Of a DNA stretch of 64,000 nucleotides, positions 41,938 through 57,982 are shown piece after piece. The notes under the pieces were generated by a model. It saw nothing but the letters and a program-made list of their open reading frames with translations. It did not search any database and was not told the DNA's origin. Positions within the stretch are counted from its first letter, which is position 1, and each line of letters begins with the position of its first letter. This stretch comes from Myxococcota bacterium (GTDB lineage: Bacteria; Myxococcota_A; UBA796; CAJQPC01), in assembly GCA_036012755.1 (NCBI GenBank), contig DASCPX010000027.1, positions 303,510 to 367,509 of the forward strand. The letters are read 5' to 3'. The position numbers were made by a program, and so were the translations under genes.

Positions 41938-41959
41938 GGGCCTCTTCGACAGCGCCTGG

Positions 41960-42165
41960 TGAGCCAGCGAGATGCGGGCCAGCGTGCCCTCCATGCCATC
42001 CGCCCTCGAGCCCAGGCTGAGCTCCCCGCCGAGGGCGTCCACGATCGAGCGGGACACCGCGAGACCCAGCCCAGTCCCCTGCCCTGTGTCCAGGGTGGTG
42101 AAGAAGGGCTCGAAGACCCGGTCACGGATCCCCGGGGGAATGCCGGGGCCGTCGGCCAGGGAGAG
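41960..42165 (-). pseudogene. Fragment of a sensor histidine kinase (HATPase_c C-terminal part only)
   Basis: [32 protein letters not shown] (G1, F and G2 boxes); no H- or N-box upstream. Confidence 0.8.
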
Positions 42166-42729
42166 CTCACCTGCGAGACCGACCCCTGCGGCGCTGACGC
42201 GGTCTGCAACGACCTCGACGCTGGCGACTACGAGTGCACCTGCGCGACGGGCTTCTCCGGAGACGGCTTCGACTGCTGCGCTGACGACGACGGCGACGAG
42301 ACCTGCAACGACCTCGACAACTGCGTCTCCGATGCCAACCCCTCCCAGGACGACTTCAACTCCGACGGGACCGGCGACGCCTGCGACTCGATCGTGATCA
42401 TGCTGTCCGACCTCACCACCACCGCGCAGTTCTACGAGTACGAGGCGGTGTCCGCCACGGTCCACTACTTCGCGCTCCTCGACGAAGGCGGCGAGCCACA
42501 CGTCGCAGTCGACGCTTGCGATGTCTGCTACGGAGCCAAGAAAGGCTACCGGCAGGACGGCGACGAGATGGTCTGCAACAACTGCGGCCTCACATTCGAC
42601 ATCGACGGCATCGGCTCCGAGAACCGGACCGGTGGCTGCAACCCCGGCTACATCCCGATCGAGATCACCGCCGAGTCCGTCATCATCGAGCCAGAGGCCC
42701 TCGAGGCCGCGAGCTGGTACTTCGAGTAG
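42166..42729 (+). CDS. 5'-truncated EGF-like + TSP3-like + DUF2318-like Cys-rich protein
   Basis: [78 protein letters not shown]; no credible start before the junction with the kinase fragment. Confidence 0.7.
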
Positions 42730-42732
42730 GTC

Positions 42733-43329
<597 letters not shown>

Positions 43330-43332
43330 GCC

Positions 43333-45423
43333 TCAGTAGCTCTCGCTCGCGCTGCCCCCGTCGCGGTCTCCGAAGTCCCACCCGTAGCGCTCCGCCACTG
43401 CCGCCCCGTAGTCCCTGCGGACCACCGTCGCGGTGACGGTCAGCCCCGCGGTAGAGGGGAAGCGGTGCTCGCTCGTGGCGCTGGAGAAGGCGGCGATGCG
43501 GTTGTCGCTGGCGACGTCGAGGGCCCTGTAGTGGGCCACGCCCCGGCGGCCCTCGCTGTCGACGAGGACCTTTGCGTAGAGCCAACCCGGCGCGCCGGCG
43601 TGGTGCCCCTCGGCGCAGAGGAAGACGACATCGCCGCGACGTGTCTCCGGGGGCTGCGAGGCGAGGATTGCCGAGTCCCCGGTGATGGAGCTCAGCTCGA
43701 CCTCGCCGAGGAACTCGTAGACAGGCAGGCCCTTTTCTGCGGCCGTGGCCTCGGCGAACGAGGTCGTGCCAGGCCCTGAGTAGTCGGTCCACTCCCCGGT
43801 CGGGCGGACGAAGCGGGCGATCAGCGCCCCCTCCAGCTCCTGGCCCGAGAGCTCCAGGTCCAGCTCCGAGACAGACGCGTCAGCGCCGATGGTCCCCATC
43901 GCCAGGTAGCCGCCGACGTCCGGAACGACCTGGCCACCTGTGGCTTCTACCGGCTGTCCGTCAGCGTCCAGGGCGCTCACGAGGACGATGATCTGCCTCA
44001 GCGGCTCCCCGGTCGGCACTGCGTGTGCGGCCCGATTCGTCAGCTCGACCGTCGCGCGGAGCTCGCCATCCTGCTCTTCGAGGGAGAGCAGGAGGTAGGG
44101 ATCGCCGAGGTCATCGGCGCGGGGGAAGTGATGGTGCCGGACCTCTCCCGCCTCGCGCAGCCAGCCCTGGGTGGTCGAGGGGATCTGGCCCCGGTCGACG
44201 ATGTCGTAGGTCGAGCTCGGGAGCTCCAGCGTCGGCATGTGGCAGCCCTGACAGGAGAAGCCGGCCTCTGTGGAGCCCGCCGCTTCGAACTCGGAGAAGG
44301 TCTCCAACACGGGCAGCCCATCGGGCCAGCGTTCGGAGTCCAGCTCCTCGCCGGGTCCCAGCGCCGGCTGGTAGTACTCGTGGCAGGCGGAGCAGAAGCG
44401 CGCCTCGCGGAACAGGGGGTTGTAGCTCCCGTTCATGATCGGCACGACCACGTCGGGGTAGGGGCCGAAGATGATTGGGTCGAACTCCTGGCCGCCGATG
44501 CGCGACTCCTCGCTGGGGCGCTCGAGCTGGATCGCCCCGTCGAGTCCAGGGGCGGGACCGGCGACGACGGAGCGGATCTTGTGGCAGAAGTCGCAGGTGA
44601 CCCCCTCGTGAGCCACTCCGGTCGAGGCGGCGAAGTCGATCGACCCGGGCGTGCCGCCGTCGGTGGCGGGGGTGTGGCAGTCGCCGCAGCTGCCGAAAGC
44701 GGTGAGGGTGTCCCGTCGATCCGGGTGGTCGCAGGCCGGTCCACAGCCCTCGTTCAGCCAAGGAAGCACGCCCTCGCCGAGGTAGCAGTACTCCGCGACG
44801 GTCCCCTCCTCTCCTGGCAGCTGGCCCTCTGCCAGGCTCCCGCCAAGGGCGTCGCAGTCGTCTGTCTCGGAGGCCCGCCCGGTGTAGATGTCCCACACCT
44901 GTGGGTCCGAGGCGGCCTTGGCGTGGGTGGAGTCCGCCCAGTCCCCGGCGATGTCCCAGTGGCAGTGTCCGCAGTAGCTCGTGTCGGGGCTCTTGATGTC
45001 CCCACCCTTCTGGAAGGGGTAGTCGACGTTGTCGACTCCCAGCAACGGCCGCATCGTGATGGTCAGCGGGCCTGTGGGATCCTCCTCGGGCACGGCCACG
45101 GACCCGCTGATCCAGCCCTCCTTGCCGGCCAGCAGGTGACGCTCGGTGATGCCGTCGTCGTCTACCTCCAGGGTAGCCAGACCCTCTGCATCGGTGGTCA
45201 CCCAGCGGTCCTCGGGCCAGCCCCCGACCATGGCCACGGCTCCCTCCACGACAGCGCCGTCGGGGTCCACGACCACCACCGTCGCGGCGCCGGTCCAGCG
45301 CTGCGCCTCGATCTCGCTGTCGTCGACGGAGCTCTCGGCCCGGCTCTCGGTCGAGCTCTCGTCAGGCGCGCTGTCAGCTCCCCGGCCGTTGCAGGCGAGG
45401 CAGAACAAAAGCGGCGTGATCAA
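43333..45423 (-). CDS. Pentaheme c-type cytochrome lipoprotein with beta-sandwich domains
   Basis: CGHCH, CGDCH, CDFCH, CSACH, CQGCH; TTG 45423 (LITPLLFCLAC) overlaps the upstream TGA. Confidence 0.88.
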   Translation of the reverse strand: MITPLLFCLACNGRGADSAPDESSTESRAESSVDDSEIEAQRWTGAATVVVVDPDGAVVEGAVAMVGGWPEDRWVTTDAEGLATLEVDDDGITERHLLAGKEGWISGSVAVPEEDPTGPLTITMRPLLGVDNVDYPFQKGGDIKSPDTSYCGHCHWDIAGDWADSTHAKAASDPQVWDIYTGRASETDDCDALGGSLAEGQLPGEEGTVAEYCYLGEGVLPWLNEGCGPACDHPDRRDTLTAFGSCGDCHTPATDGGTPGSIDFAASTGVAHEGVTCDFCHKIRSVVAGPAPGLDGAIQLERPSEESRIGGQEFDPIIFGPYPDVVVPIMNGSYNPLFREARFCSACHEYYQPALGPGEELDSERWPDGLPVLETFSEFEAAGSTEAGFSCQGCHMPTLELPSSTYDIVDRGQIPSTTQGWLREAGEVRHHHFPRADDLGDPYLLLSLEEQDGELRATVELTNRAAHAVPTGEPLRQIIVLVSALDADGQPVEATGGQVVPDVGGYLAMGTIGADASVSELDLELSGQELEGALIARFVRPTGEWTDYSGPGTTSFAEATAAEKGLPVYEFLGEVELSSITGDSAILASQPPETRRGDVVFLCAEGHHAGAPGWLYAKVLVDSEGRRGVAHYRALDVASDNRIAAFSSATSEHRFPSTAGLTVTATVVRRDYGAAVAERYGWDFGDRDGGSASESY

Positions 45424-46139
45424 GAGCCCGCGTGTTCGGCGATCACGTCCCTGAGCTCCTCGAGCCCGTGGCCGGTCGTGCACTCCAGCATCTCCATCTC
45501 CGGCGACAGGGCGCACTTGCCGGGCAGGCTCCTGCCATCGTAGGGCGTGACGTCCAGCAGCAGGCCCTCGGTGTCCGCCAGGACCGGGAGGTCCGGCGAG
45601 CCGAGCCGCTCGTGGTACTCGGCGGCCATCTCGGGTGGGGGCGGACCGGGATCCATGCCCTCGAAGAGGCCGACGATGTAGCCCATCTCGATGCCGGTCT
45701 CGTCGGTGAAGTCGACGCTGTCTTCATAGAGGCTGACCGCCTCCGTCATGCAGACGCCTCACCAGGCGGCGGTCATGAAGAGGATGTGGTAGCTCCTGGC
45801 GAAGTCCCAGAGGTCCACCTCGTCGCCGCACTGGTCGACGAAGGTGACGTTGTCGACCACGTCACCGACCTCGGCTCCGGTGGAGCTCAGGTCACCGGGA
45901 TCGTCGTGGCGCCAGCCGCAGGCGTAGCACTGCTCGTCGAGGTCCAGCGGGCTGGAGCCGCAGTCGAGCTCGTCGCCGTCGTCGAAGCCGTCGCCGTCGC
46001 TGTCCGCCAGGGTCGGATCCGTGCCGAACTCGTCCTCTTCCATGCAGTCTTCGAGCCCGTCGCCGTCAGCGTCACCGCCGCAGGCTCGGGCGACGTCAGT
46101 GCCGGTACAAGCGAGGCCAAGCAGGAGCAGGGAGTTCAT
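45420..46139 (-). CDS. Selenocysteine-containing thioredoxin-fold lipoprotein (W-U-G-V-C) with DxDxDG repeats
   Basis: ORFs 45759..46139 and 45420..45749 are in the same frame, separated only by TGA 45759-45761 in FMTAAW*GVC; SECIS-like hairpin follows. Confidence 0.85.
45725..45750 (-). promoter_or_regulatory. Putative bacterial SECIS element
   Basis: mRNA UGA-N15-GAGGC-GGUCA-GCCUC; loop starts with G about 21 nt after UGA; stem extendable by CAU/AUG. Confidence 0.7.
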
Positions 46140-46210
46140 GGGCAGTTCCTATCGGACGGCCCAGCCTATCCTCCGAGAGGGTGCCTTCGGTCCGCGGTCT
46201 GCAAACAGCC

Positions 46211-47080
46211 TCAGTCGGAGGGGTCCAGAGCGGCCTCGATGCCCCCTGGGGTGTGGCACGCCTGGCACAGGGCGCCGTCCTCCAGAGGCAGCCTGGACAG
46301 CGCCGAGTCCCCCGCGACCGGAGCCGCGTGGAGGCCGATCGACGGCGACCCCTGCTCCAGGCTCGGAGCCAGGACCTGCTCCAACCAGGACTCGGGGAAG
46401 GGGGACGAGTCGGGGATCTCACGGCTTCGCTGGGTGATCCCGGGGGGATGGGGGTCATGGCAGGTCGAGCAGACCAGCTCGCCCTGGGGAGTCAGCGGCA
46501 GGCCCGCTGCCTTGGCCCGCTCCGCCATCTCCGGCTCCATCGGCCCACGGTGGAGCGCGGATCCCGCGTGGGCCGAGAGCTGGTGGCAGGCCACGCAGAT
46601 CTCGTCGCCCTGGACCGTCGCTGGGGCGCGGCCCGTGTCGGCAGGGACCGGGTCGTGGCAGCCCAGGCAGCGGGTCGGGATCGCCGGGTCCAGCATCGCC
46701 TGGTGGGGGTCGAAGCCCACGCTGGTCAGCTCCACGTGGCAGGCGGCGCAGAAGCCGCGCTCGTTGGGATAGGTCCCCCTGAGCAGGCCGGGGCTGGCCG
46801 CGTCGCCGTGACAGGCGGGCTCGTCGTGGCAGCTCAGGCAGGCCAGCTCGCCATTCACCAGCGGAAAGACCCCTGGGACGGTCGCCGTCTCCGGCTTCAT
46901 CCCGACGGGGTGGGGATCGGCGGCGTGGCAGCTCAGGCAGGTCTCGTCCGCGGAGCCGTGGGTGAAGGAGACCTCCTCCGGGGCGGTCCCGACCGATGCC
47001 TCGGAGTGGCAGGCGGCGCAGCCCTCCGCGTCGCCATGGGGGTTGGCAGAGGCGCTCAGCAGCAGCAGGAGCCCGGTCAC
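46211..47080 (-). CDS. Octaheme c-type cytochrome (periplasmic, doubled-CxxCH-type)
   Basis: 8 CxxCH (CAACH, CLSCH x2, CAACH, CLGCH, CVACH, CSTCH, CQACH), HPVG and CSTCHDPH motifs; GTGA overlap. Confidence 0.9.
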   Translation of the reverse strand: MTGLLLLLSASANPHGDAEGCAACHSEASVGTAPEEVSFTHGSADETCLSCHAADPHPVGMKPETATVPGVFPLVNGELACLSCHDEPACHGDAASPGLLRGTYPNERGFCAACHVELTSVGFDPHQAMLDPAIPTRCLGCHDPVPADTGRAPATVQGDEICVACHQLSAHAGSALHRGPMEPEMAERAKAAGLPLTPQGELVCSTCHDPHPPGITQRSREIPDSSPFPESWLEQVLAPSLEQGSPSIGLHAAPVAGDSALSRLPLEDGALCQACHTPGGIEAALDPSD

Positions 47081-47370
47081 TCGCCCTCTCCCGTGTCGAC
47101 TCGGAGCGCCTCGACGCCGTTGTCTCCATGACATGGCACGCAGGTGGACGGGTCCTCTGGATCCGCCTCGATCTCTTCGACCTCGACCCCGCCGATGCAG
47201 TCCTGGCTGTGGATGTTCCAGGCCTGGTGACACTGGAAGCACTGCTCCTGGCCCCAGCCCACGCCGTGTTCCTCGGCGGTCAGGGTGAGCGCCGCCGGAG
47301 ACCTGGTCAGGTCCCGCGTCCCGGCGCAGGGATCCGGATCGCCGCAGGCGAGCAACAACAGCAGGCTCAC
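47077..47370 (-). CDS. Small diheme cytochrome c lipoprotein
   Basis: MSLLLLLAC, CFQCH, CVPCH. Confidence 0.85.
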   Translation of the reverse strand: MSLLLLLACGDPDPCAGTRDLTRSPAALTLTAEEHGVGWGQEQCFQCHQAWNIHSQDCIGGVEVEEIEADPEDPSTCVPCHGDNGVEALRVDTGEGE

Positions 47371-47951
47371 AGGGCACCTCCATCTGCGTGGCAGGCGACA
47401 CAGTCGGGCTGGAGGTGGCAGGTGCTGCAGGCGGCCGGATCAGCACGGGCCGCGATCCCGTGGATGCTGATCCAGCTGCGGTCGTGCACGTCGAAGGAGA
47501 TGGACTCCTTGTTCTCGTGGCAGTCGATGCACTCGGAGCTCAAGTGGCAGTCCTTGCACTGCAGGAGCCCCATGCGGCTCTGTCCCCCGTGGAGCTCCAG
47601 CCACCCGGCCCCGTGGCTCGCTGGTGGGGCGATCTGCTCGTGGCAGGTCTCGCAGCGCCCCGGGGCCTTGGTCCGCCGGTCGTCCGCCGGGTTGTGGCAG
47701 TAGTGACAGGCCTGCTCGGGCGGTCGGAGGAAGACCTCGTCCACCGCCTGGGGCGAGGCCGGTGTGGGCGCCGCCGCCCCCACCTGGTGACACGCAGTGC
47801 AGGAGAGACCCTCGCGCTTCAGGGCGCGCTCGTGGACCTCGTGGTCGAAGCGATCGAAGATCTGCTCTGAGTGCCCGGACAAGCTCGGGGCCGCGGCCCA
47901 GGCCAAGGGAGGGGCCAGGAGCAGGACCATCGCCGAGCTGCGCCACCTCAT
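47367..47951 (-). CDS. Heptaheme cytochrome c (c3/c7-like N-terminus)
   Basis: Signal peptide, FDHEVH, 7 CxxCH. Confidence 0.9.
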   Translation of the reverse strand: MRWRSSAMVLLLAPPLAWAAAPSLSGHSEQIFDRFDHEVHERALKREGLSCTACHQVGAAAPTPASPQAVDEVFLRPPEQACHYCHNPADDRRTKAPGRCETCHEQIAPPASHGAGWLELHGGQSRMGLLQCKDCHLSSECIDCHENKESISFDVHDRSWISIHGIAARADPAACSTCHLQPDCVACHADGGAL

Positions 47952-49078
47952 GGCAGGCTCACGACGAGGCCGGCGTTGCCTCGCAGATCGAAGCGATGGG
48001 TGGCGTCAGAGGCCGCCTCGACCCCGGCCTGGACGCGAAGCCGTTCCGTGAGCTCTGAGTGGACCTCGAGGCCCCCGGTCAGGACCGTGTCCCAGGGCTC
48101 GTGCAGCTTGCGATAGGGCACGACCGCCGCCGTGGCGTGCAGGCTCCGCGCGTCCGACAGGGACAGGGTCGCCCGCGCGCTCAGGGCGTGGAAGACACCG
48201 CCGGGCCCAGACCGGAAGGCGTAGGCAGGGGCGACGGTCCAGAGCCGAGCCCGTCCCGGCAGCCAGGCAACGTCGACGAGGTGGCCCCACTGACGCACCT
48301 CGTCCTCGGAGTGGGATGTGAGGGCGTAGCTGGTCCACAGGGTCGAGCGCCGAGCGCCTCGAAGACGCACGCTCCCACCGACCTGGTCGACCCCCTCCGG
48401 CGCAAAGGCGGCAGTGATGGCCTCGCCGAAGAGGGAGTCCGGGTCGAGCGCCTCTCTGTGCTGGGCGTGGATCGAGGCCCGCACTCCAGGGGTCAGCGAG
48501 CTCTCCAACGCGACCCGAGCCCACTGGACCGGGGCCTCCGGGCCGGTGACGACCAGCGCCCGGACCCCAGCCCGGTCGCCTCCCAGCCACAGCTCGCCGT
48601 CTGCATGGGGCGAGGACTCCACCCCCGCGAGACCACCGAGGCGGAGCCGGGCCGGTCCCTTCACCACACGAGCCTCGAGCCTCGCCATCGCCTCGCCGTC
48701 GGCGAGGTCGTCCAGGTCATGGTGCCGCGCCAGGCCCCCCCAGCCAGAGAACTGCAGCCCGCCCCTGGTCCAGGACAGCTGGGCCCCGTCCAGGCTCATC
48801 GGGCGCAGAGGTCCCCTCACGAGCTGGCGTCCCACCTCCCAGCTGCCCCATGTGGCCTGGGAGCTGGCGTTGAGCAGGTACAAGTCGGGATCGATCTCGC
48901 CGCTCCAGCTCAGGCCCGCGTAGCCCGACACCGCCACACCGTGGTGCTCGCTGCGCACTCGCAGGTACTCGCTGGCGGGGAGCTGGCGCTGACCGAGGAA
49001 GTCGTGGCGGACCTGGACCACGGTCTCGGACTCGGCGACCGTGGCGGCCGCGGCGGCACTCAGCAACGCCAGCATCAC
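47948..49078 (-). CDS. Predicted outer-membrane beta-barrel (porin of a porin-cytochrome cluster)
   Basis: Signal peptide, Cys-free, alternating amphipathic strands, VGRQ motif; sandwiched between multiheme genes with 4-bp overlaps. Confidence 0.7.
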   Translation of the reverse strand: MMLALLSAAAAATVAESETVVQVRHDFLGQRQLPASEYLRVRSEHHGVAVSGYAGLSWSGEIDPDLYLLNASSQATWGSWEVGRQLVRGPLRPMSLDGAQLSWTRGGLQFSGWGGLARHHDLDDLADGEAMARLEARVVKGPARLRLGGLAGVESSPHADGELWLGGDRAGVRALVVTGPEAPVQWARVALESSLTPGVRASIHAQHREALDPDSLFGEAITAAFAPEGVDQVGGSVRLRGARRSTLWTSYALTSHSEDEVRQWGHLVDVAWLPGRARLWTVAPAYAFRSGPGGVFHALSARATLSLSDARSLHATAAVVPYRKLHEPWDTVLTGGLEVHSELTERLRVQAGVEAASDATHRFDLRGNAGLVVSLP

Positions 49079-49824
49079 TCGGCCCCCCCGTGGCAGGAGG
49101 CCCCGCAGGGGACCTGCTCCGGTCCGTCTCCTGGCTCATGGCAACGCATGCAGACCGCCTCCCCCGAGACCGAGACGCCAGCGATGTGTCCGGACGGCCA
49201 GTCCTCCGAGTGAGGGTAGCTGGAGTGGCAGCGGGCGCACGCGACGCCGGAGATCCCACCGGTCCAGCTGGTGGCGTCGACAGGATCCGTGTGGCAGGCG
49301 ATGCAGTCCTCGGCGCCCTCGGCTCCCTGCTCGCCGTGGGCGCTCTCCCACCCCTCCGCGTGGGGGTACGACTCGTGGCAGGAGCTGCAGCCCACCTCGA
49401 TCGCACCGCCGAGGAGGTCGTCTCCGTGGCACGGGCCGCAGACGACGGCGCTGTCCGGTCGCTTCAGGGCGTAGGCGCCGTGCACCCCGGCCTCGGCCCA
49501 GCCCGCCGCGTGGGGGTAGCTCGCGTGACAGCTGGTGCAGCTCACCTCGCTCCCCTCGGCTTTGTGACAGCCCAGGCAGGTCTTCTGCTGCCCGTGGACC
49601 GAGCCCGCCACCCAGCCCTCGGCGTGGGGGTAGTGCTCGTGGCAGGAGGCGCAGGTGGGAGCCGTCGCCCCCTCGACGTGGCAGTCCAGGCAGGCCGAGG
49701 TGCCGAGCTCCAGGGCCAGGGCGCCGTGGCCTTCGTCGAAGCCCTCCGGGTGTGGGAAGCGGACCTCGCCCACCGGCTGGGGCGCTGGGTCGAGCAGCAC
49801 GCAGGCGAAGAACAGGACGATCAC
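49075..49824 (-). CDS. Decaheme-type cytochrome c lipoprotein built from internal repeats
   Basis: MIVLFFAC; 9 CxxCH plus terminal CGASCH; repeated CxxCHxxYPHxxxW. Confidence 0.9.
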   Translation of the reverse strand: MIVLFFACVLLDPAPQPVGEVRFPHPEGFDEGHGALALELGTSACLDCHVEGATAPTCASCHEHYPHAEGWVAGSVHGQQKTCLGCHKAEGSEVSCTSCHASYPHAAGWAEAGVHGAYALKRPDSAVVCGPCHGDDLLGGAIEVGCSSCHESYPHAEGWESAHGEQGAEGAEDCIACHTDPVDATSWTGGISGVACARCHSSYPHSEDWPSGHIAGVSVSGEAVCMRCHEPGDGPEQVPCGASCHGGAE

Positions 49825-51764
49825 GGGAACAGCCCCTCCCAGGCAGCCTGGAAGGCCTCGTGGGTGCTGCGTTCGCTGGGGTCCCCGGTTGGTCCCCTGA
49901 AGGTGCCGCCGGTCTGCTCGGCCAACCAGGCCCCGTAGGCGTGGCAGTCGGCGCAGGCGTGGGTGGGGTAGTCGCCTGGAGGCAGGGTGTCGGCGCCAGC
50001 CTCGTCGAAGGCCGAGAGCGTCTCCTCCGGCGCCAGCGCCACGAAGAGGTGAGATGACAGGTCACCGGAGCCAGAGAGCTCGTGGAAGCCGACTCGCGCA
50101 GCGGTCTGCGGCATGTGGCAGCCGGTGCAGCGCCCCTCCTCCGTGGGGCCGTCCGGGTCGTAGTCCCCGTGGCCGTCGTGGGCTTCGAGCGCCTCGCCCT
50201 GGAAGTCCGGCACCACGTGGCAGGCCTCGCAGAGCGAGTTGTCAGTCGAGGACGAGCGCAAAGAGCCGTGCTCTCCGGTGCCGTGGACCGTGTGGCAGTC
50301 GAAGCAGGCTAGCGACGCGTGCTTCGAGAGCGCCGCCTCGTCGGACTGCTGGCCCGGAGCCGCGGCAGCCCCAGAGGGCCAGAGGGTCGGGACGGAGCTG
50401 GCGTGGTCTTCGAGCTCCGCGCCCGGCTCGTAGAAGCCGAACTCGGTCGACAGGGGGAAGGGCAGGCCGCTGCCGTGGCCCTCGAGCGCGCCGTGGCACT
50501 GTCCGCAGACTCCGGCGGCGCGTCCGGCGTCGAGCTGGTCCGGACGCGTGATCGTGTCGGCCTTGTCCGGCTCGGAGGCGGCGATGTGGGAGGAGGCGGG
50601 CCCGTGGCAGCGCTCGCAGCCGACGCCGGTCTCGATCCAGCGGTCCCCGGAGCTCGAGCTCATGTCCACGCCGCCCTCGGCGTCCACCTCGAGATCGAAG
50701 CCCGTGGAGTGACAGGCAAAGCAGCCGGCCTCGGCCGAGAGCTCCGCCGCAGGGCTCGTCTCCTCGTCCACGAGGAACTCACCGGCCTCGTCGAACCAGC
50801 GCTCGGCCCGCCAGGCCCGCGGGGCGCTATCGGCCCAGCCCTCACGCTCGCTGTCATCGGGAGTCCAGGCCACCGGCAGGGGCCAGGCCTCATCGCCGAG
50901 CTCCGTGTAGGGGATGCCCGAGGACGAGCCCAGCCAGCCCGCCACCTCGTAGTCCCGGCTCTCGCCGCTGGCCGCTGACAGGCGCACGACGGGGTCCTCT
51001 CCGTCCATCCAGAGGGTGGCGCTGGCTTCGCCGAGCTCCACGACCTCGCCTGACTCGAAGAGCAGCAGGCGATCCTCGCTGGTGGCCTCCTCCAGGGCCT
51101 GGGCGTGGGGGCTGGGACTCCAGTCGCGCAGGATCTCGTAGTGACAGGCGACGCAGTAGCCGGAGCCGACCACCACCGAGTCACTCCGGGGTCGCCCACC
51201 GAGCGTCGCCACCAGCTGGACCGCGCCCTGCTCTGGCACGGTGACGTCCCAGAAGCGCCTCGACCAGTAGCGGTCATCGCTGACCTCCAGGTCGACGATC
51301 TGCCCACCGAGTCCGGGAATCCAGGCCGACCCTGCCTCGTCCGACCAGGCCGCGCTCCCGTCGCTGGCGACCACCAGAGCGCCCTCTACGGGCTCGCCGG
51401 CGGGGTCGAGGACCTCGACAGCCACTCCGCCGTCTGGCGAGATCGCTGGCGACAGGCTGATCTCGAGGTGGCTCCCCACCTCGACCCAGTCGGTGGTCGT
51501 GGCCTCCATGCCCTCGGCGACCGCCCACACCCGGAGCTCGCCTGGGGGCAGCAGGGTGAGCTCGAAGCTGCCGTCGGCTGCCGAGACGGCCTCGTAACCG
51601 TGGGGCTCGCTGGCCAGCTGCGCACCCTCGACCGGCAGACCGGCCTCGTCGGTCACGACCCCACTGAGGGTGGCGAGCTGGTCCCGCGCCGGGTGCACCG
51701 GAGCCTCGTCGCTGTCCCAGCCGACGGTCGGCACCGAGCAGGCCTGGATGAGTCCGAGCAGCAT
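49821..51764 (-). CDS. Octaheme cytochrome c lipoprotein with N-terminal carboxypeptidase-regulatory-like domains
   Basis: MLLGLIQAC; SGVVTDEAGLPVEGA; 8 CxxCH including GVGCERCHGP. Confidence 0.9.
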   Translation of the reverse strand: MLLGLIQACSVPTVGWDSDEAPVHPARDQLATLSGVVTDEAGLPVEGAQLASEPHGYEAVSAADGSFELTLLPPGELRVWAVAEGMEATTTDWVEVGSHLEISLSPAISPDGGVAVEVLDPAGEPVEGALVVASDGSAAWSDEAGSAWIPGLGGQIVDLEVSDDRYWSRRFWDVTVPEQGAVQLVATLGGRPRSDSVVVGSGYCVACHYEILRDWSPSPHAQALEEATSEDRLLLFESGEVVELGEASATLWMDGEDPVVRLSAASGESRDYEVAGWLGSSSGIPYTELGDEAWPLPVAWTPDDSEREGWADSAPRAWRAERWFDEAGEFLVDEETSPAAELSAEAGCFACHSTGFDLEVDAEGGVDMSSSSGDRWIETGVGCERCHGPASSHIAASEPDKADTITRPDQLDAGRAAGVCGQCHGALEGHGSGLPFPLSTEFGFYEPGAELEDHASSVPTLWPSGAAAAPGQQSDEAALSKHASLACFDCHTVHGTGEHGSLRSSSTDNSLCEACHVVPDFQGEALEAHDGHGDYDPDGPTEEGRCTGCHMPQTAARVGFHELSGSGDLSSHLFVALAPEETLSAFDEAGADTLPPGDYPTHACADCHAYGAWLAEQTGGTFRGPTGDPSERSTHEAFQAAWEGLFP

Positions 51765-51848
51765 CGCGCGGGAGCATACTTGCTGAGGGTGGCGTCGCCC
51801 CGCCGGAGTCCTCGATCCGCTACATTGCCACACCTGACCGGAGCGACC

Positions 51849-52736
51849 TTGTACCTGACACTGCTCACAGCCCTGGCAGCCGAAGCTCCGCCCATCGTCG
51901 GCGGAGAGAGGACCGGCGACTACCCGGCGGTGCTCCTGCTCTGGACCGGCGACGCCACCTGCACCGGCACGCTCGTGGCTCCCAATTGGCTCGTCACCGC
52001 TGCCCACTGCGTGAAGGGTGGCGACCCGGACAAGATGAGCGTGCACGTGGGCAAGAGGCCCTTCGCCGGCTCCGAGGAGGCCTCCAGCGACGTCACGGAG
52101 CTCTTCGCCCACCCCGACTACCGGTCCAACATGAGCAAGGGCATGGACGTCGGGCTGGTCCACCTCGCCACTCCGCTGGAGTCGGTCGTCCCCATGCCGC
52201 TCACGAGGGCCACCATCGACAACAGCTGGGAGGGCCGCGACGTCCGGTACGTCGGCTACGGCGTCACCTCGGAGACCGCCAACGACTCGGGGGTGAAGCG
52301 CACGGTGGTCGTGCCCTTCTACCAGCTCGACGAGCACTGGATGTACACCTACGACCCTGGCCACAACATGTGCTGGGGAGACTCGGGCGGACCGGCCTTC
52401 GTCGAAGAGGACGGCGAGCTCGCCGTCGCCGGGATCATCTCCTGGGTGGGCAGCTGGGACGACGAGGATCGGCCCTGCTCCACCGGCTGGGGCAGCTCCA
52501 CCCGCATCGACACGGTGCGGGACTGGATCGACGGCTACGTCACGGTCCGCTACGCAGAGGACACCGGCTCCGCCGAGCCCTGGGACACGGCGCCTCCACC
52601 ACAGGACAGCGATCCGGTCGTGGAGCCGAAGGGCCCACCGGATGACAAGGGCGGCATCTGCGGCACCCTGCCCGGAGCAGGCAGCGCCATGCTCGGGCTG
52701 CTCCTGCTCGCCGGGGCCCGGCGTCGCCGGGGCTGA
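51849..52736 (+). CDS. Trypsin-like S1 serine protease with MYXO-CTERM-like tail
   Basis: IVGG, CTGTL, TAAHC, DVGL, GDSGGP; C-terminal GGICG..LLLLAGARRRR. Confidence 0.9.
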   Translation: MYLTLLTALAAEAPPIVGGERTGDYPAVLLLWTGDATCTGTLVAPNWLVTAAHCVKGGDPDKMSVHVGKRPFAGSEEASSDVTELFAHPDYRSNMSKGMDVGLVHLATPLESVVPMPLTRATIDNSWEGRDVRYVGYGVTSETANDSGVKRTVVVPFYQLDEHWMYTYDPGHNMCWGDSGGPAFVEEDGELAVAGIISWVGSWDDEDRPCSTGWGSSTRIDTVRDWIDGYVTVRYAEDTGSAEPWDTAPPPQDSDPVVEPKGPPDDKGGICGTLPGAGSAMLGLLLLAGARRRRG

Positions 52737-54709: not shown

Positions 54710-57700
54710 CTACCTGCGGAAGGTGTGGTGGTTCTTGCAGTCCCAGGTGCGTCCGTCGCCGCAGACCTTGTAGCGGGAGTCGGCGCTCTTGGGTGAGACC
54801 CAGTCCTCCAAGCCCTCCTCCTGCCATCGGTAGGGGAAGGGAACGCCGGGCACCGCCTGGTAGATGGCGACCTCGTCGAGGGTGCCGTCCGTGCAGCCCT
54901 CGAAGGCCAGCCGGATGGCGACTTCGGTCTCGGACTCGGGCACATCGGCCCTGGCGGTCGTGACGTCGAGGCGGTCGACCACGACATCACGCACCTCTGC
55001 GGAAAAAGAGCTCGTGCCCAGCACAGAGGCGTTCACGACGCAACCCGCTGGCAGCTCCGTGTGGAAGCGCACGAGGAGCTCCTTGGGCCACTCGCTGTCG
55101 AGCTGGACCGTCGGGCTGTCCCAGACCGTGGTCGGCCCCAGGCGCAAGAGCGCGCCAGTTTGGGGCCATGTGAAGTCGCTCTCCTCGAGCGCAGCGCCGC
55201 TCACGGTCCAGGACTCGACACCCCCGGGCAGCGCGGCGTCCTTCGAGATGAGCCAGTCGTCGACCAGCGCCCATCCGGGCTGCCAGAAGTAGTGGCCCGC
55301 CTGGCGCATGACCCGCGGCCCCTGCCGGTCGGTGCCCCAGGCGAAGTGGGCCACTCCGGGCACGTCGAAGCCGTGGGTGCGGCCGGTGCCCGCGGCCAGG
55401 GCGGCCCAGGCCCTGGCGTTGTCGGGGTCCCAGGCGCTGGCGCCGATCACGCCGAGTCCGGCGCCCGTGAGATCCCGGACGAAGCTCATCAGGGTCTCGT
55501 GGCCACCGTCATCCTTGCCGACCCGGCGCACGTCGTAGTGCCACCACGACAAGAAGACCGTGGAGGCAGGCACGAAGTCCCGAGCCCCGGAGGTGCCTCC
55601 GACGAAGCCGCCGTGGGGCACCTGGTAGGCAGCGCGACCGGGTATGCCGCCCTCGCTGTCCCCGCCGTTGTGCCAGGGAGTGAACATGTCCCCGGAGACG
55701 AGCAGCCGACGCTCGCTCACCGTCTCGGCGCAGACGCAGGGGGCGAAGTCTCCGCTGAGCGGGTCCGCGAGCATCGAAGAGCAGTCCGGGGCCTCGGCGC
55801 AGCCCCCGCTGTTGTCGCAGAGGGCCTCTTGCACGCCGCAGACGAAGCTCCCGAGGGTCTCCGAGGCGCTCGTCTCGTAGTAGCCGGCGCTCGCCCGGTT
55901 GAACCCCCTCGCCTCTCCTCCAAGATCCGAGATGCCGACGAAGTCGCTGTCGACCCCGTGGTCCGAGAGCGCCTTCAGCTGCCCCGCGGGCCCGTGTTCG
56001 TGCTCCCACCACCCTGACTCGTAGACCCCCGGCGCGTAGGTCCAGTGGGACTGGCGGACGGAGAGCCCGGGCCACAGCCCAGCGTGGATCCAGGTGCGGT
56101 AGGAGACCTCGACCAGCTCCCCCTCCGAGGCGCAGGCGGGGTCGATCTCGATGCTCCCGAACGGCCCGAGGGGCGCACCATGGGCGTCGAAGTAGCTCGC
56201 GACGCTCAAGGCGCCCTCGAAGCCCGCCTCGACGGTGATGCAGTCGCCTCCGAGCTCCTCCTCTCCGAAGACACGGACGCTGGAGGCGTCGATGCGAGGC
56301 AGCTGAGCGTCGACCTCGAAGAGCTGGATGTCGTCGACGTAGAGCTTCGAGCCCGGCCGCCCGAGCAGCTGCAGGTAGGCCTCGGTCACCCGGTCATCGA
56401 CCAGCGGCACCCGGTAGACGAAGGAGAACCGGACCCACTCGGCGTCCCGCGACAGCGTGTCCCCCTTGGCGGTGAGGTAGTCGCTGTCCTCGCGCTTGGT
56501 GTTCAGGGGGGCGACGTCCAGGGCGTTGGTGATGCCCTCTGAGTCCTTCACCACCACCTTGACGCGCAGATCCTGGGTCTTGGTGACCAGGGCTCGGAAG
56601 GACAAGGCGTAGAGCCGACCGGCGTAGGGCTCCTCGATGGGCATCGGCACCCGGATCGCCGGGTTCGCGCAGGTGGCATCGGGCTGCAGCGCCAGGCCCC
56701 GCAGCCCCCTGACCTCGCTCCAACACCCCGCGACCTGGCAGGCGCCGAGGGGCTTGTCGCACTTCCAGAGCTCGGTGGGCAGCTCCGTCTTGTCGGTATC
56801 CCAGCGCGGAGTCACGGCCTTCGGGGCCGCAACGTGGCCCTCGGCGTCGAGGTCCTCGCAGTCCTCTGCGAGGAACAGCCGCCCCTCCAGCGCGCAGACC
56901 TGCATCTCGCGAGGGAGGACGGAGAACCCCTCGGAGAGCGTGACGTCGCCCTCTGCACCCCAGAGCTCGTAGGGGTCCTCCAAGCTCAGGGGTGGTCCGG
57001 CGATTGGGGTGTCACCGACCCGGGTCTCCAGCCCGAAGACCGAGGGCACGAGCTCGACCCCGCGATCCCCGAGGTAGCGGTCGAGCTCGGCGTAGAGGAG
57101 AGCCCCACCACAGCCGGTGAGGTCCTGCAGGGTCGATCCGGTGGCGACCGGGTAGCCCTCGTCGAGGGCGTGGGTGAAGCGCCCGGACACGAGGGTGTCG
57201 AGCCGGACGAGCACGTCGTTGCATGTGCCCACTCCGCGCTCGCAGCCGATGGTCGCCGCCCAGAAGACCGAGGTCTCGTCAGGCTGATCGCAGGTCCCGA
57301 GCTCGACGCCCACGATGTTGGGGACGAAGTGAGCGTTCATGGTGCCCTTGAAGGAGGCGAAGCCCATGCGCACGTCGATGGCGGGGTGGTCACTGACCGT
57401 CTCGGGGCACCAGGTGACAGCCTCGACCGGGCTCCAGCCACCCCTCCAGCAGGAGGCGTCCCCGAGGCAGCTGCCGTCGTAGTCGCTGCACTCGTTGCGG
57501 GCGGTGAACTCGGAGTGCGGGTCCGGAGCCCAGGCGCCGTCGACGGTCTGCACGTGGTCGAGGCTCTGGAGCCAGGCCATCGCCCCGTAGACCAGCCCCT
57601 GCCTCGTCCCGCCGGCGATCAGGATCCCGTCCCTGCGCCAGCCGATGACGTAGCCCTGCTCGTGGATGTCCGTGAGCGAGACCTCGAAGTGATTCTCGAG

Positions 57701-57982
57701 GTGGGCGCGCTGCTGCGCCGAGAGCTCGTCGACGCTGGCCAGGATCAGCCGAGACCCGGCCTGGTCGAACTGCATGGGCGGGAGCTGGTCCTCGCAGCCC
57801 ATCAGGAGCTTGCCCTCGGCCAGCAGGCTCGCGACGCTCGCGCTGGCCTCGCCCTTGGACTCGATCGACCAGGTCTGATCGATCACCAGGGCATCGCCAC
57901 AGCTCGCGGGGACGTGAGCTCGGGCCTGCACCGTCGCCGAGTCATGCGGAGAGCCACAGGCAGCAAGGAACCAGAGCAGCAT
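54710..57982 (-). CDS. Large lipoprotein with GH20/GH67-like N-terminal domain and CBM-like modules
   Basis: MLLWFLAAC; EQGYVI..GILIAGGTRQGLVYG..LQ; YVDDIQLFEV and LDEVAIY CBM-like ends. Confidence 0.65.
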   Translation of the reverse strand: MLLWFLAACGSPHDSATVQARAHVPASCGDALVIDQTWSIESKGEASASVASLLAEGKLLMGCEDQLPPMQFDQAGSRLILASVDELSAQQRAHLENHFEVSLTDIHEQGYVIGWRRDGILIAGGTRQGLVYGAMAWLQSLDHVQTVDGAWAPDPHSEFTARNECSDYDGSCLGDASCWRGGWSPVEAVTWCPETVSDHPAIDVRMGFASFKGTMNAHFVPNIVGVELGTCDQPDETSVFWAATIGCERGVGTCNDVLVRLDTLVSGRFTHALDEGYPVATGSTLQDLTGCGGALLYAELDRYLGDRGVELVPSVFGLETRVGDTPIAGPPLSLEDPYELWGAEGDVTLSEGFSVLPREMQVCALEGRLFLAEDCEDLDAEGHVAAPKAVTPRWDTDKTELPTELWKCDKPLGACQVAGCWSEVRGLRGLALQPDATCANPAIRVPMPIEEPYAGRLYALSFRALVTKTQDLRVKVVVKDSEGITNALDVAPLNTKREDSDYLTAKGDTLSRDAEWVRFSFVYRVPLVDDRVTEAYLQLLGRPGSKLYVDDIQLFEVDAQLPRIDASSVRVFGEEELGGDCITVEAGFEGALSVASYFDAHGAPLGPFGSIEIDPACASEGELVEVSYRTWIHAGLWPGLSVRQSHWTYAPGVYESGWWEHEHGPAGQLKALSDHGVDSDFVGISDLGGEARGFNRASAGYYETSASETLGSFVCGVQEALCDNSGGCAEAPDCSSMLADPLSGDFAPCVCAETVSERRLLVSGDMFTPWHNGGDSEGGIPGRAAYQVPHGGFVGGTSGARDFVPASTVFLSWWHYDVRRVGKDDGGHETLMSFVRDLTGAGLGVIGASAWDPDNARAWAALAAGTGRTHGFDVPGVAHFAWGTDRQGPRVMRQAGHYFWQPGWALVDDWLISKDAALPGGVESWTVSGAALEESDFTWPQTGALLRLGPTTVWDSPTVQLDSEWPKELLVRFHTELPAGCVVNASVLGTSSFSAEVRDVVVDRLDVTTARADVPESETEVAIRLAFEGCTDGTLDEVAIYQAVPGVPFPYRWQEEGLEDWVSPKSADSRYKVCGDGRTWDCKNHHTFRR

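Follow-up and report, generated by a model that had tools for sequence, protein, structure and literature searches.

The stretch of DNA that we analyzed (the window) is 64,000 nucleotides of contig DASCPX010000027.1 from an uncultured member of the Myxococcota (assembly GCA_036012755.1). Genomes that neighbor it in the atlas are most often from the Myxococcota, and a distant relative of the barrel described below is also labeled as belonging to this phylum. The window contains eight genes on the minus strand, which we call g1 to g8, that run from 51764 down to 43333 and that encode 8, 9+1, 0, 7, 2, 8, 0, and 5 CxxCH-type heme sites, respectively. We propose that g1-g6 are a divergent set of porin-cytochrome (Pcc) genes of the Geobacter type. 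The predicted 22-stranded barrel (g3) likely holds the heptaheme cytochrome g4, and electrons likely move from there to lipid-anchored cytochromes at what would be the outer face of the cell. The flow is probably outward when oxygen is limiting. We hold this proposal with moderate confidence. The cluster is an uncharacterized variant of the Pcc conduits, and the new part is its composition, not its barrel family.

The genes g1-g6 are chained through five consecutive 4-bp overlaps of start and stop codons. A sixth 4-bp overlap, which is absent from an earlier annotation that was made from the sequence alone (the initial annotation), couples g7 to g8 (TTGA, 45423-45420). The gap between g6 and g7 is 71 bp, and a promoter and terminator scan of 45900-46400 found neither a sigma-70 nor a terminator consensus around it. 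We re-found what the initial annotation had listed: the eight genes and their heme counts (39 CxxCH and one CX3CH in total, of which g1-g6 have 35 heme sites), the five overlaps, and the in-frame UGA in g7. Outside of the cluster, the window has only 2 CxxCH in 110,996 six-frame residues. Across the genome, the cluster accounts for 39 of the 135 CxxCH motifs in the 32 stop-to-stop frames that carry at least two motifs.

The barrel is encoded by g3 (47948..49078, minus strand; 376 amino acids, with no cysteine). An AlphaFold2 model of g3, built from a 66-row alignment, has 22 strands and no plug domain (pLDDT 95.5, pTM 0.86). The initial annotation had made its proposal depend on this gene encoding a transmembrane barrel, and the model bears that out. 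Among the matches listed, the closest folds are those of TonB receptors, whose barrels also have 22 strands (Z = 21.1, rmsd 3.4); comparison to the structure of MtrB gave Z = 16.8 and rmsd 6.1. Fold searches with the model returned generic barrels (ushers, TonB receptors, and porins), and no Pcc porin was among the matches listed. We considered whether g3 might be a TonB-dependent receptor and rejected this, as the model has no plug and the protein has no match to that family.

Family databases say little about this barrel. None of the 66 members of the alignment has a meaningful Pfam or NCBIfam match to any outer-membrane family. TIGR03509, the MtrB/PioB family in NCBIfam, matches none of these 66 rows, which are close relatives only (profile A3), and none of the 50 rows of a wider profile (A8). 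A search of PDB sequences with A8 found no barrel at E ≤ 10, and our other PDB searches with barrel profiles gave none either. (In a genome-wide search for MtrB/PioB barrels, the control matched nowhere.) The lack of a Pfam or NCBIfam family for the 66 members favors the view of the initial annotation, which was that the cluster is an unrelated new family of conduit with an integral selenocysteine redox module. We consider that view to be very unlikely. The "unrelated" half of it is already largely refuted by the homology of g3, g4, and g2 to parts of the Geobacter Pcc conduits, as described next, and the selenocysteine half is discussed below.

As references, we used the loci in genome G460 that match the barrel profiles. 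These have the layouts porin-8 heme-12 heme (twice, with identical porins and identical 8-heme proteins), porin-5 heme-13 heme, and 12 heme-porin-5 heme-6 heme; the 12-heme lipoproteins of the duplicated layout are named OmcB and OmcC of Geobacter sulfurreducens in our sources. We assigned the names OmbB and OmaB by position and by the identity of the duplicates (PMC4245776), and we inferred the names ExtABCD and ExtEFG by comparing layouts and heme counts to PMC6148476.

The narrow profile A3 scores 56.3 bits on OmbB and 31.7 bits on ExtB, as compared to maxima of 10.4 and 7.3 bits for block-shuffled sequences (60 shuffles each) and scores near -2 for reversed sequences. With A8, the scores rise to 132.3 bits for OmbB and 105.8 bits for ExtB, while shuffles of OmbB reach at most 11.8 bits. 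A8 also matches 109 of 151 genomes of the class Desulfuromonadia, many of them over almost the full profile. In the reciprocal direction, a profile built from 17 porins of Desulfuromonadia finds only g3 among 67,868 frames of its own genome (E = 6e-5; the next best has E = 1.9). These 17 porins were picked with A8, so this search is not fully independent. The initial annotation had suggested comparing the cluster to hidden Markov models of MtrAB, PioAB, OmbB, and ExtB; for the barrel, this turned up nothing for MtrB or PioB and distant relatives in OmbB and ExtB. Judging by these profiles, g3 is a homologue of the OmbB/ExtB/ExtE porins and not a new barrel family.

The initial annotation had also taken the size of the barrel, about half that of MtrB, as a sign of a new conduit. 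A typical Pcc porin is far smaller than MtrB, with a prediction of 18-22 strands (PMC4245776), so the small size of g3 does not mark it as unrelated. The g3 barrel is the only member of its family in its genome, and a pattern scan of named genomes with the barrel only found no relative. In our trees, the barrels of the window type fall apart from OmbB and the other Geobacter porins and from the porins of the 13-heme type (see below), which group closer to the Geobacter porins, with weak deep support. The group has 38 rows plus one extra row (L065), with an SH-aLRT of 75.3. Because some of the 38 rows are database proteins that lack genomic context, the trees only suggest that the window-type barrels are a subfamily of their own.

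The gene downstream of the barrel, g4 (47367..47951, minus strand; 194 amino acids, 7 CxxCH), encodes a predicted periplasmic cytochrome that is homologous to OmaB, ExtC, and ExtF. It has a c3/c7-like N-terminal triheme part followed by four repeat hemes. The g4 profile scores 89.3 bits on OmaB, 47.3 bits on ExtF, and 42.6 bits on ExtC, as compared to maxima of 35.2, 25.4, and 24.0 bits for shuffles that preserve the heme motifs. The similarity to OmaB is also apparent with hhalign (98.8%) and BLASTP (E = 3e-13). By homology to the OmbB-OmaB pair, g4 likely threads the g3 barrel.

Upstream of the barrel, g2 (49075..49824, minus strand; 249 amino acids, 9 CxxCH and 1 CX3CH) encodes a predicted lipoprotein with 10 hemes that is made of HP-x-x-x-W-x(n)-H repeats. 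By its profile, g2 is homologous to the N-terminal part of ExtG (70.2 bits versus a shuffle maximum of 15.2 bits; hhalign 98.6% over ExtG 1-313). The g2 profile does not rise above shuffles on OmcB (35.2 bits versus 35.4 bits), and neither ExtA nor ExtD matches g2 or g4 above shuffles.

The other three cytochromes of the set are less easily placed. The diheme predicted lipoprotein g5 (47077..47370, minus strand; 97 amino acids, 2 CxxCH) does not score above shuffles against OmaB, ExtC, ExtD, or ExtF, and we did not find a Geobacter counterpart among these. The predicted lipoprotein g1 (49821..51764, minus strand; 647 amino acids, 8 CxxCH) is a candidate for a terminal cytochrome at the surface. 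It has two carboxypeptidase-regulatory-like (Ig-like) domains (PF13620, E = 7.9e-20) and an octaheme domain with a c554/OcwA-like segment (PF13435, E = 2e-14). The g1 profile scores -1.4 bits on OmcB (shuffle maximum 20.9 bits), just 16.3 bits on OmcC (shuffle maximum 9.3 bits), and does not match ExtG above shuffles. Its top match in the PDB is 6i5b (E = 4.6e-18), limited to profile positions 361-512 (about 150 of 665). (We take another PDB entry, 6qvm, to be OmhA.) The entry 6I5B is OcwA, a terminal reductase at the cell surface of Thermincola potens (PMC6703420), and it is the best solved relative of the heme domain of g1; what sets g1 apart from OcwA is its 8 hemes, the Ig-like domains at its N terminus, and its lipobox. 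Finally, g6 (46211..47080, minus strand; 289 amino acids, 8 CxxCH) encodes a predicted periplasmic cytochrome of the paired-CxxCH type that matches PF09699 and PF14522, and it is a candidate for a periplasmic relay. The length and the presence of g6 vary among relatives.

We judged signal peptides and lipoproteins by eye and with regular expressions. A lipobox-like cysteine was found by regular expression in 49 of 55 rows for g2, 13 of 15 for g5, 7 of 10 for g1, and 4 of 17 for g4; the g4 of the window has no N-terminal cysteine. In g1, g2, g4, and g5, the number of conserved histidines that are predicted to be distal ligands equals the number of hemes (8, 10, 7, and 2), and no CxxCK motif was found in the cluster, so these proteins resemble wires and not catalysts.

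How does this cluster compare to the characterized conduits? The closest likeness is to OmbB-OmaB-OmcB and OmbC-OmaC-OmcC of G. sulfurreducens. The barrels are homologous and of similar length (376 amino acids for g3 versus 403), the barrel gene is directly followed by that of a homologous small multiheme protein with a signal peptide (7 hemes in g4 versus 8), and lipoprotein cytochromes lie in the same operon. The differences are that the barrels are only about 17% identical, that no homologue of OmcB was found in the window's cluster, and that the window has three smaller lipoproteins (with 2, 10, and 8 hemes) and an additional periplasmic 8-heme protein. As to the Ext conduits, g3 resembles ExtB and ExtE, g4 resembles ExtC and ExtF, g2 resembles ExtG 1-313, and ExtABCD also has several small lipoprotein cytochromes per cluster (PMC6148476). 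However, ExtC and ExtF are 5-heme lipoproteins, while g4 has 7 hemes and no lipobox; g2 is a stand-alone 10-heme protein; and the gene order is not alike. Anaeromyxobacter, from the same phylum, has a two-gene pcc with a porin and a periplasmic cytochrome with 12-14 hemes (PMC4245776). We compared it by description only, and it shares the pairing of a barrel with a multiheme protein that we see in 13-heme loci of Myxococcota; the partner of g3 instead has 7 hemes and is accompanied by a dedicated diheme lipoprotein.

The working layout of MtrCAB from Shewanella (a periplasmic cytochrome, a barrel, and a lipoprotein cytochrome) is the same, but g3 has no sequence match to MtrB or PioB and has 22 strands instead of the 28 predicted for MtrB. 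We did not find any cytochrome in the cluster that scores over the cut-off for the MtrA/DmsE family, as MtrCAB, MtoAB, and PioAB have (TIGR03508; 38.6 bits for g6 and 35.1 bits for g1, versus 192.2). With only weak and partial matches to MtrA or MtrC, the cytochromes indeed look little like those proteins, as the initial annotation had thought. PCC3 and PCC4 are set apart by description: they have a conserved inner-membrane protein with five helices (PMC5566968) that is absent from g1-g6, all of which are cytochromes or the barrel.

Overall, the cluster has a barrel in the range of 18-22 strands with OmbB-type homology, an adjacent OmaB relative in the range of 5-14 hemes (g4), and lipoprotein cytochromes (g1, g2, and g5, by their lipobox-like cysteines), which are the features of Pcc clusters. 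What it lacks is the large OmcB-type lipoprotein with 12 hemes, encoded behind OmaB, that characterizes the Om(abc)B type. Three of the six conduit genes (g2, g3, and g4) have Pcc homologues by our profile comparisons, and no characterized complex corresponds to the six-gene set as a one-to-one orthologue. Separate hidden Markov models for OmbB and for the ExtB/E porins detect Pcc clusters in several phyla (PMC7399161). We did not find a description of the six-gene set in the literature that we searched, with supplements outside the scope (including excerpts of PMC7399161, PMC12545173, PMC13591261, PMC11748539, and PMC11495043). The Myxococcota lead in novel multiheme clusters (10.1101/2022.03.26.485925), and the supplements of that preprint may hold such proteins.

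Gene order among relatives supports a conduit whose parts belong together. With the barrel profile, we found matches in 20 of the 61 near genomes and, across the phylum, in 65 of 401 (both counts include the window's own genome), and we retrieved 20 loci from each of these searches. Of 42 barrel rows, 30 are of the window type, and the synteny counts are for these 30; the other 12, which have 13-heme, 11-heme, or other partners, were excluded. The barrel is directly followed by g4 (7 hemes) and g5 (2 hemes) in 27 of the 28 rows whose downstream sequence reaches 1 kb or more (L031 and L071 are omitted as cut), and the sole miss is a rearranged locus. So, the barrel, the 7-heme protein, and the diheme lipoprotein form a constant core. 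On the other side, g1 and g2 are directly upstream of the barrel in 17 of the 26 rows whose upstream sequence reaches 1.5 kb or more (four cut rows are omitted; L071 had been found through g1). The synteny check proposed by the initial annotation thus came out in favor of a conserved core.

In twelve of the relatives' loci, the operon is longer and also encodes a 15-heme protein and a membrane-anchored protein with 6 hemes, which has an N-terminal hydrophobic stretch. Four of the six such 6-heme proteins that we scanned match NapC/NirT, under the cut-off. Single loci have a fusion of cytochrome b561 to a multiheme domain or a 12-heme protein that resembles NapC. Two neighbors with 10 hemes that we scanned in relatives are MtrC-like. 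The cluster in the window is a shorter form without the 15-heme/NapC-like extension. Within the phylum, the genes of more distant barrel relatives precede genes for 13-heme proteins (about 340-390 amino acids) that score 75-120 bits on the g4 profile, a pattern that is described for the pcc clusters of Anaeromyxobacter (PMC4245776).

Two side observations concern these barrels. One genome (L050 and L051, G293:C8) has two full barrels and a barrel fragment in a span of about 15 kb, along with copies of the cytochrome genes that are inverted and shuffled. The neighbors of three distant barrel relatives (L056, L062, and L064) are multiheme proteins of very large size that have 30, 34, and 27 CxxCH.

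The constancy of the core also bears on where the lipoproteins act. The barrel and g4 might be Pcc-like while the lipoproteins stay in the periplasm, either as a heme capacitor or in support of a periplasmic or envelope enzyme (g1, with its c554/OcwA-like segment) that acts on soluble nitrogen, sulfur, or metal species. The heme domain of g1 has widespread relatives in many phyla, a pattern scan of named genomes with the g1 alignment found mainly generic c554-like multiheme proteins, and two full-length relatives that we checked (L134 and L139) have no adjacent barrel. As a side activity, OcwA also acts on nitrite and hydroxylamine (PMC6703420), and a surface position of g1, g2, and g5 is a prediction. 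On the other hand, an empty 22-stranded barrel stays with g4 and g5 in 27 of 28 loci, and g1 has a candidate distal histidine for every heme, with no CxxCK. We think this reading quite unlikely.

If g1-g6 are a Pcc conduit, as we propose, then from the homologies and the gene order we infer the following chain. Quinol would be oxidized by an inner-membrane complex that is encoded elsewhere, which might be the ACIII-like locus or the Rieske/cytochrome b/octaheme locus described below. Electrons would then move to the 8-heme g6 as a periplasmic relay, to the c3/c7-like head of g4, and through the four repeat hemes that g4 would place within the g3 barrel. On the outer side, the diheme lipoprotein g5 may act as a cap that receives electrons from g4 and hands them to the 10-heme wire g2, which would pass them to g1 as the terminal reductase for extracellular acceptors (Fe(III) or Mn(IV) oxides, or humics). 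Pcc complexes of Geobacter carry electrons across liposomes (PMC4245776) and are required for the reduction of metals or electrodes (PMC6148476). We treat outward flow as the default because of the Geobacter genetics (PMC6148476) and the NapC-like genes of the relatives.

Several genes in the host's genome could serve such a chain. For cytochrome maturation, which the initial annotation had proposed to look for, CcmA, CcmC, CcmE, and CcmF are present. As the initial annotation stated, the cluster itself has no quinol oxidase. On the same contig, about 190 kb away, is an ACIII-like locus with a pentaheme protein, a Mo/Fe-S fusion, NrfD, and a monoheme protein, with family scores under the cut-off. 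A Rieske/cytochrome b locus (L179, G000:C190:8000-27999) combines a Rieske protein, ExtP/ExtQ-like cytochrome b subunits, and an 8-heme cytochrome; some 10 kb from it, a 9-heme protein is encoded. This locus is a candidate for the quinol-oxidizing partner. Two further systems are a caa3-type oxidase, which has a diheme partner, and a PsrA/TtrA-like molybdoenzyme that is accompanied by NrfD.

Several points weigh against our proposal. First, pairwise similarity between g3 and OmbB is negligible: a two-sequence BLASTP comparison gives E = 0.009, and hhalign gives 88% over 348 columns with 17% identity. This means that function is being transferred over a large distance. Second, we found no Pcc counterpart for g1, g5, or g6, with g1 and g5 being the ones that were compared to the Geobacter proteins. 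Third, we did not find NapC/NirT in this 96%-complete genome (in a search whose control matched in 2 of 14), which together with the caa3-type oxidase leaves the quinol link and the direction uncertain.

Because of the aerobic respiratory chain of the host, inward flow through the same Pcc-type conduit is the main rival to our proposal. Electrons from Fe(II), reduced humics, minerals, or other cells would pass via g6 to the caa3 oxidase or to ACIII in a mainly aerobic host. We consider this to be possible but unlikely. Besides the presence of the caa3-type oxidase with its diheme partner and of the ACIII-like locus, inward flow fits with the apparent lack of NapC/NirT and of the 15-heme/NapC-like extension of the 12 relatives, and conduits of the Mtr/Mto type operate both ways (PMC4245776). 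However, the characterized Pcc complexes export electrons (PMC4245776, PMC6148476), the genomes of 73 Fe(II) oxidizers lack homologues of OmbB-OmaB-OmcB (PMC5566968), and the relatives tie the operon to NapC-like and CbcL-like genes, which are typical of quinol oxidation.

Elsewhere in the genome, another locus (L178, G000:C70:296000-306000) has a weak match to heme-copper oxidases with an adjacent monoheme cytochrome, which is possibly NorBC-like. The same locus has a 6-hydroxycyclohex-1-ene-1-carbonyl-CoA dehydrogenase that scores over the cut-off, which is a gene of anaerobic aromatic degradation. These genes suggest a facultatively anaerobic side of the host.

The conduit might also be a shortened remnant that has lost its link to the inner membrane and is little used in the host's lineage. 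Its presence is patchy (1 of 19 other genomes of the same family outside of the genus, and 2 of 2 within the genus), truncation and rearrangement are frequent among the relatives, and the NapC-like gene would have been lost. But all eight reading frames are intact, the starts are coupled, the ligands are conserved, and shortened forms recur across several genera. We regard a decaying cluster as highly improbable.

We now turn to g7 and g8. Here g7 (45420..46139, minus strand) is a predicted lipoprotein and selenoprotein with a TGA at codon 127, in W-U-G-V-C; if this TGA is read as selenocysteine (Sec), the protein has 239 amino acids. It has acidic repeats that resemble TSP3 and a redoxin-like domain with W-U-x-x-C. 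The label of redoxin is based on a weak match to TlpA (E = 0.041) and on the motif. A SECIS element must lie at a set spacing downstream of the UGA, and a stem-loop follows the UGA of g7, with its loop beginning about 20 nt downstream. Homologues have a similar hairpin sequence, and the stretch also encodes conserved residues. The in-frame TGA is kept in most of the close homologues, and the genome has SelA and tRNA-Sec. The initial annotation's identification of g7 as a selenoprotein is thereby strengthened. Another gene in this genome (G000:C59:125598-126866) encodes a molybdopterin oxidoreductase with an in-frame TGA and is probably a Sec-containing formate dehydrogenase.

The adjoining g8 (43333..45423, minus strand; 696 amino acids, TTG start, 5 CxxCH) encodes a pentaheme predicted lipoprotein. 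We rejected the idea that g8 is a multiheme selenoprotein of the ExtKL/MccSep type (NF040886): it scores 29.4 bits as compared to a cut-off of 250, and the selenocysteine belongs to another gene, g7. Nothing in the genome scores over the NF040886 cut-off, while G460 scores 615.

The initial annotation took g7 as a selenocysteine redox module built into the conduit, and our results do not support this. Matches to g8 (E ≤ 1e-30) are present in 44 of the 61 near genomes and g7-like proteins in all 61. We examined 14 loci around g7 or g8: the two genes are adjacent in 5, one diheme gene lies between them in 4, and no conduit genes are found within these 9 stretches. Five of those 9 genomes have no barrel match, and 6 of the 19 other barrel-bearing genomes have no g8 match. 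These genes are beside the conduit in 1 of the 30 barrel rows and in one more genome; at L021, g7-g8 are next to the conduit and convergent to it, and at L223, g8 alone is directly upstream of g1. Two observations pull the other way. Including the window, g8 adjoins the conduit in three genomes, with differing orientations in the two others. Also, the closest orthologues of g8 (at least 50% identity) are in 9 genomes, 7 of which have the barrel, versus 12 of the other 51 genomes, but these relatives are not independent. We think it is likely that g7-g8 are a separate and more widespread redox module that travels as its own pair and that is downstream of the conduit by chance here. Across the order, this pair of a Sec-redoxin and a pentaheme lipoprotein is conserved (L224-L232, with the diheme gene between in four loci).

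Next to g8, on the plus strand and convergent to it (41959-43329), are genes for an FtrD-like protein with EGF and acidic repeats (PF10080, E = 8e-24) and for a redoxin lipoprotein of the TUGYCR family with a CxxC motif (NF053656, under the cut-off). Genes for an FtrD-like protein and a TUGYCR redoxin also adjoin g8 and g1 in L223, and the redoxin adjoins g7 in L233. The FtrD-like and redoxin genes near g8 hint at an iron or redox island. On the other side of the cluster, a secreted trypsin-like protease (51822-52736, plus strand) is divergent from g1 and has at least six paralogous loci in the genome. Further along, a Cys-rich predicted lipoprotein of 1090 amino acids (54710-57982, minus strand) has only weak matches to accessory domains of glycosyl hydrolases.

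A bolder combination of these ideas is that a distinct Pcc subfamily, with the barrel, the 7-heme protein, and the diheme lipoprotein as its core, draws electrons inward from minerals, humics, or prey or partner cells into ACIII or caa3 in oxygen-respiring uncultured myxobacteria. It would be the first inward conduit of the Geobacter type, and the pair of the Sec-redoxin and the pentaheme lipoprotein would have been recruited as a surface branch for thiols or sulfur. We view this as speculative and rather unlikely.

Although the cluster adds no new principle of extracellular electron transfer, it means that the Pcc family of Geobacter now reaches an uncultured lineage with an aerobic respiratory chain. 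With a pairwise E of only 0.009, g3 would probably have gone unnoticed in the BLAST screen of Shi et al. (PMC4245776). Pairwise BLAST, Pfam, and NCBIfam are blind at such a distance, so genome screens probably undercount electroactive myxobacteria. The relatives also form a natural series, from a three-gene core to the six-gene form to a nine-gene form that extends up to a NapC-like inner-membrane protein. This series offers a test of what a minimal Pcc conduit is and of the role of the diheme lipoprotein cap.

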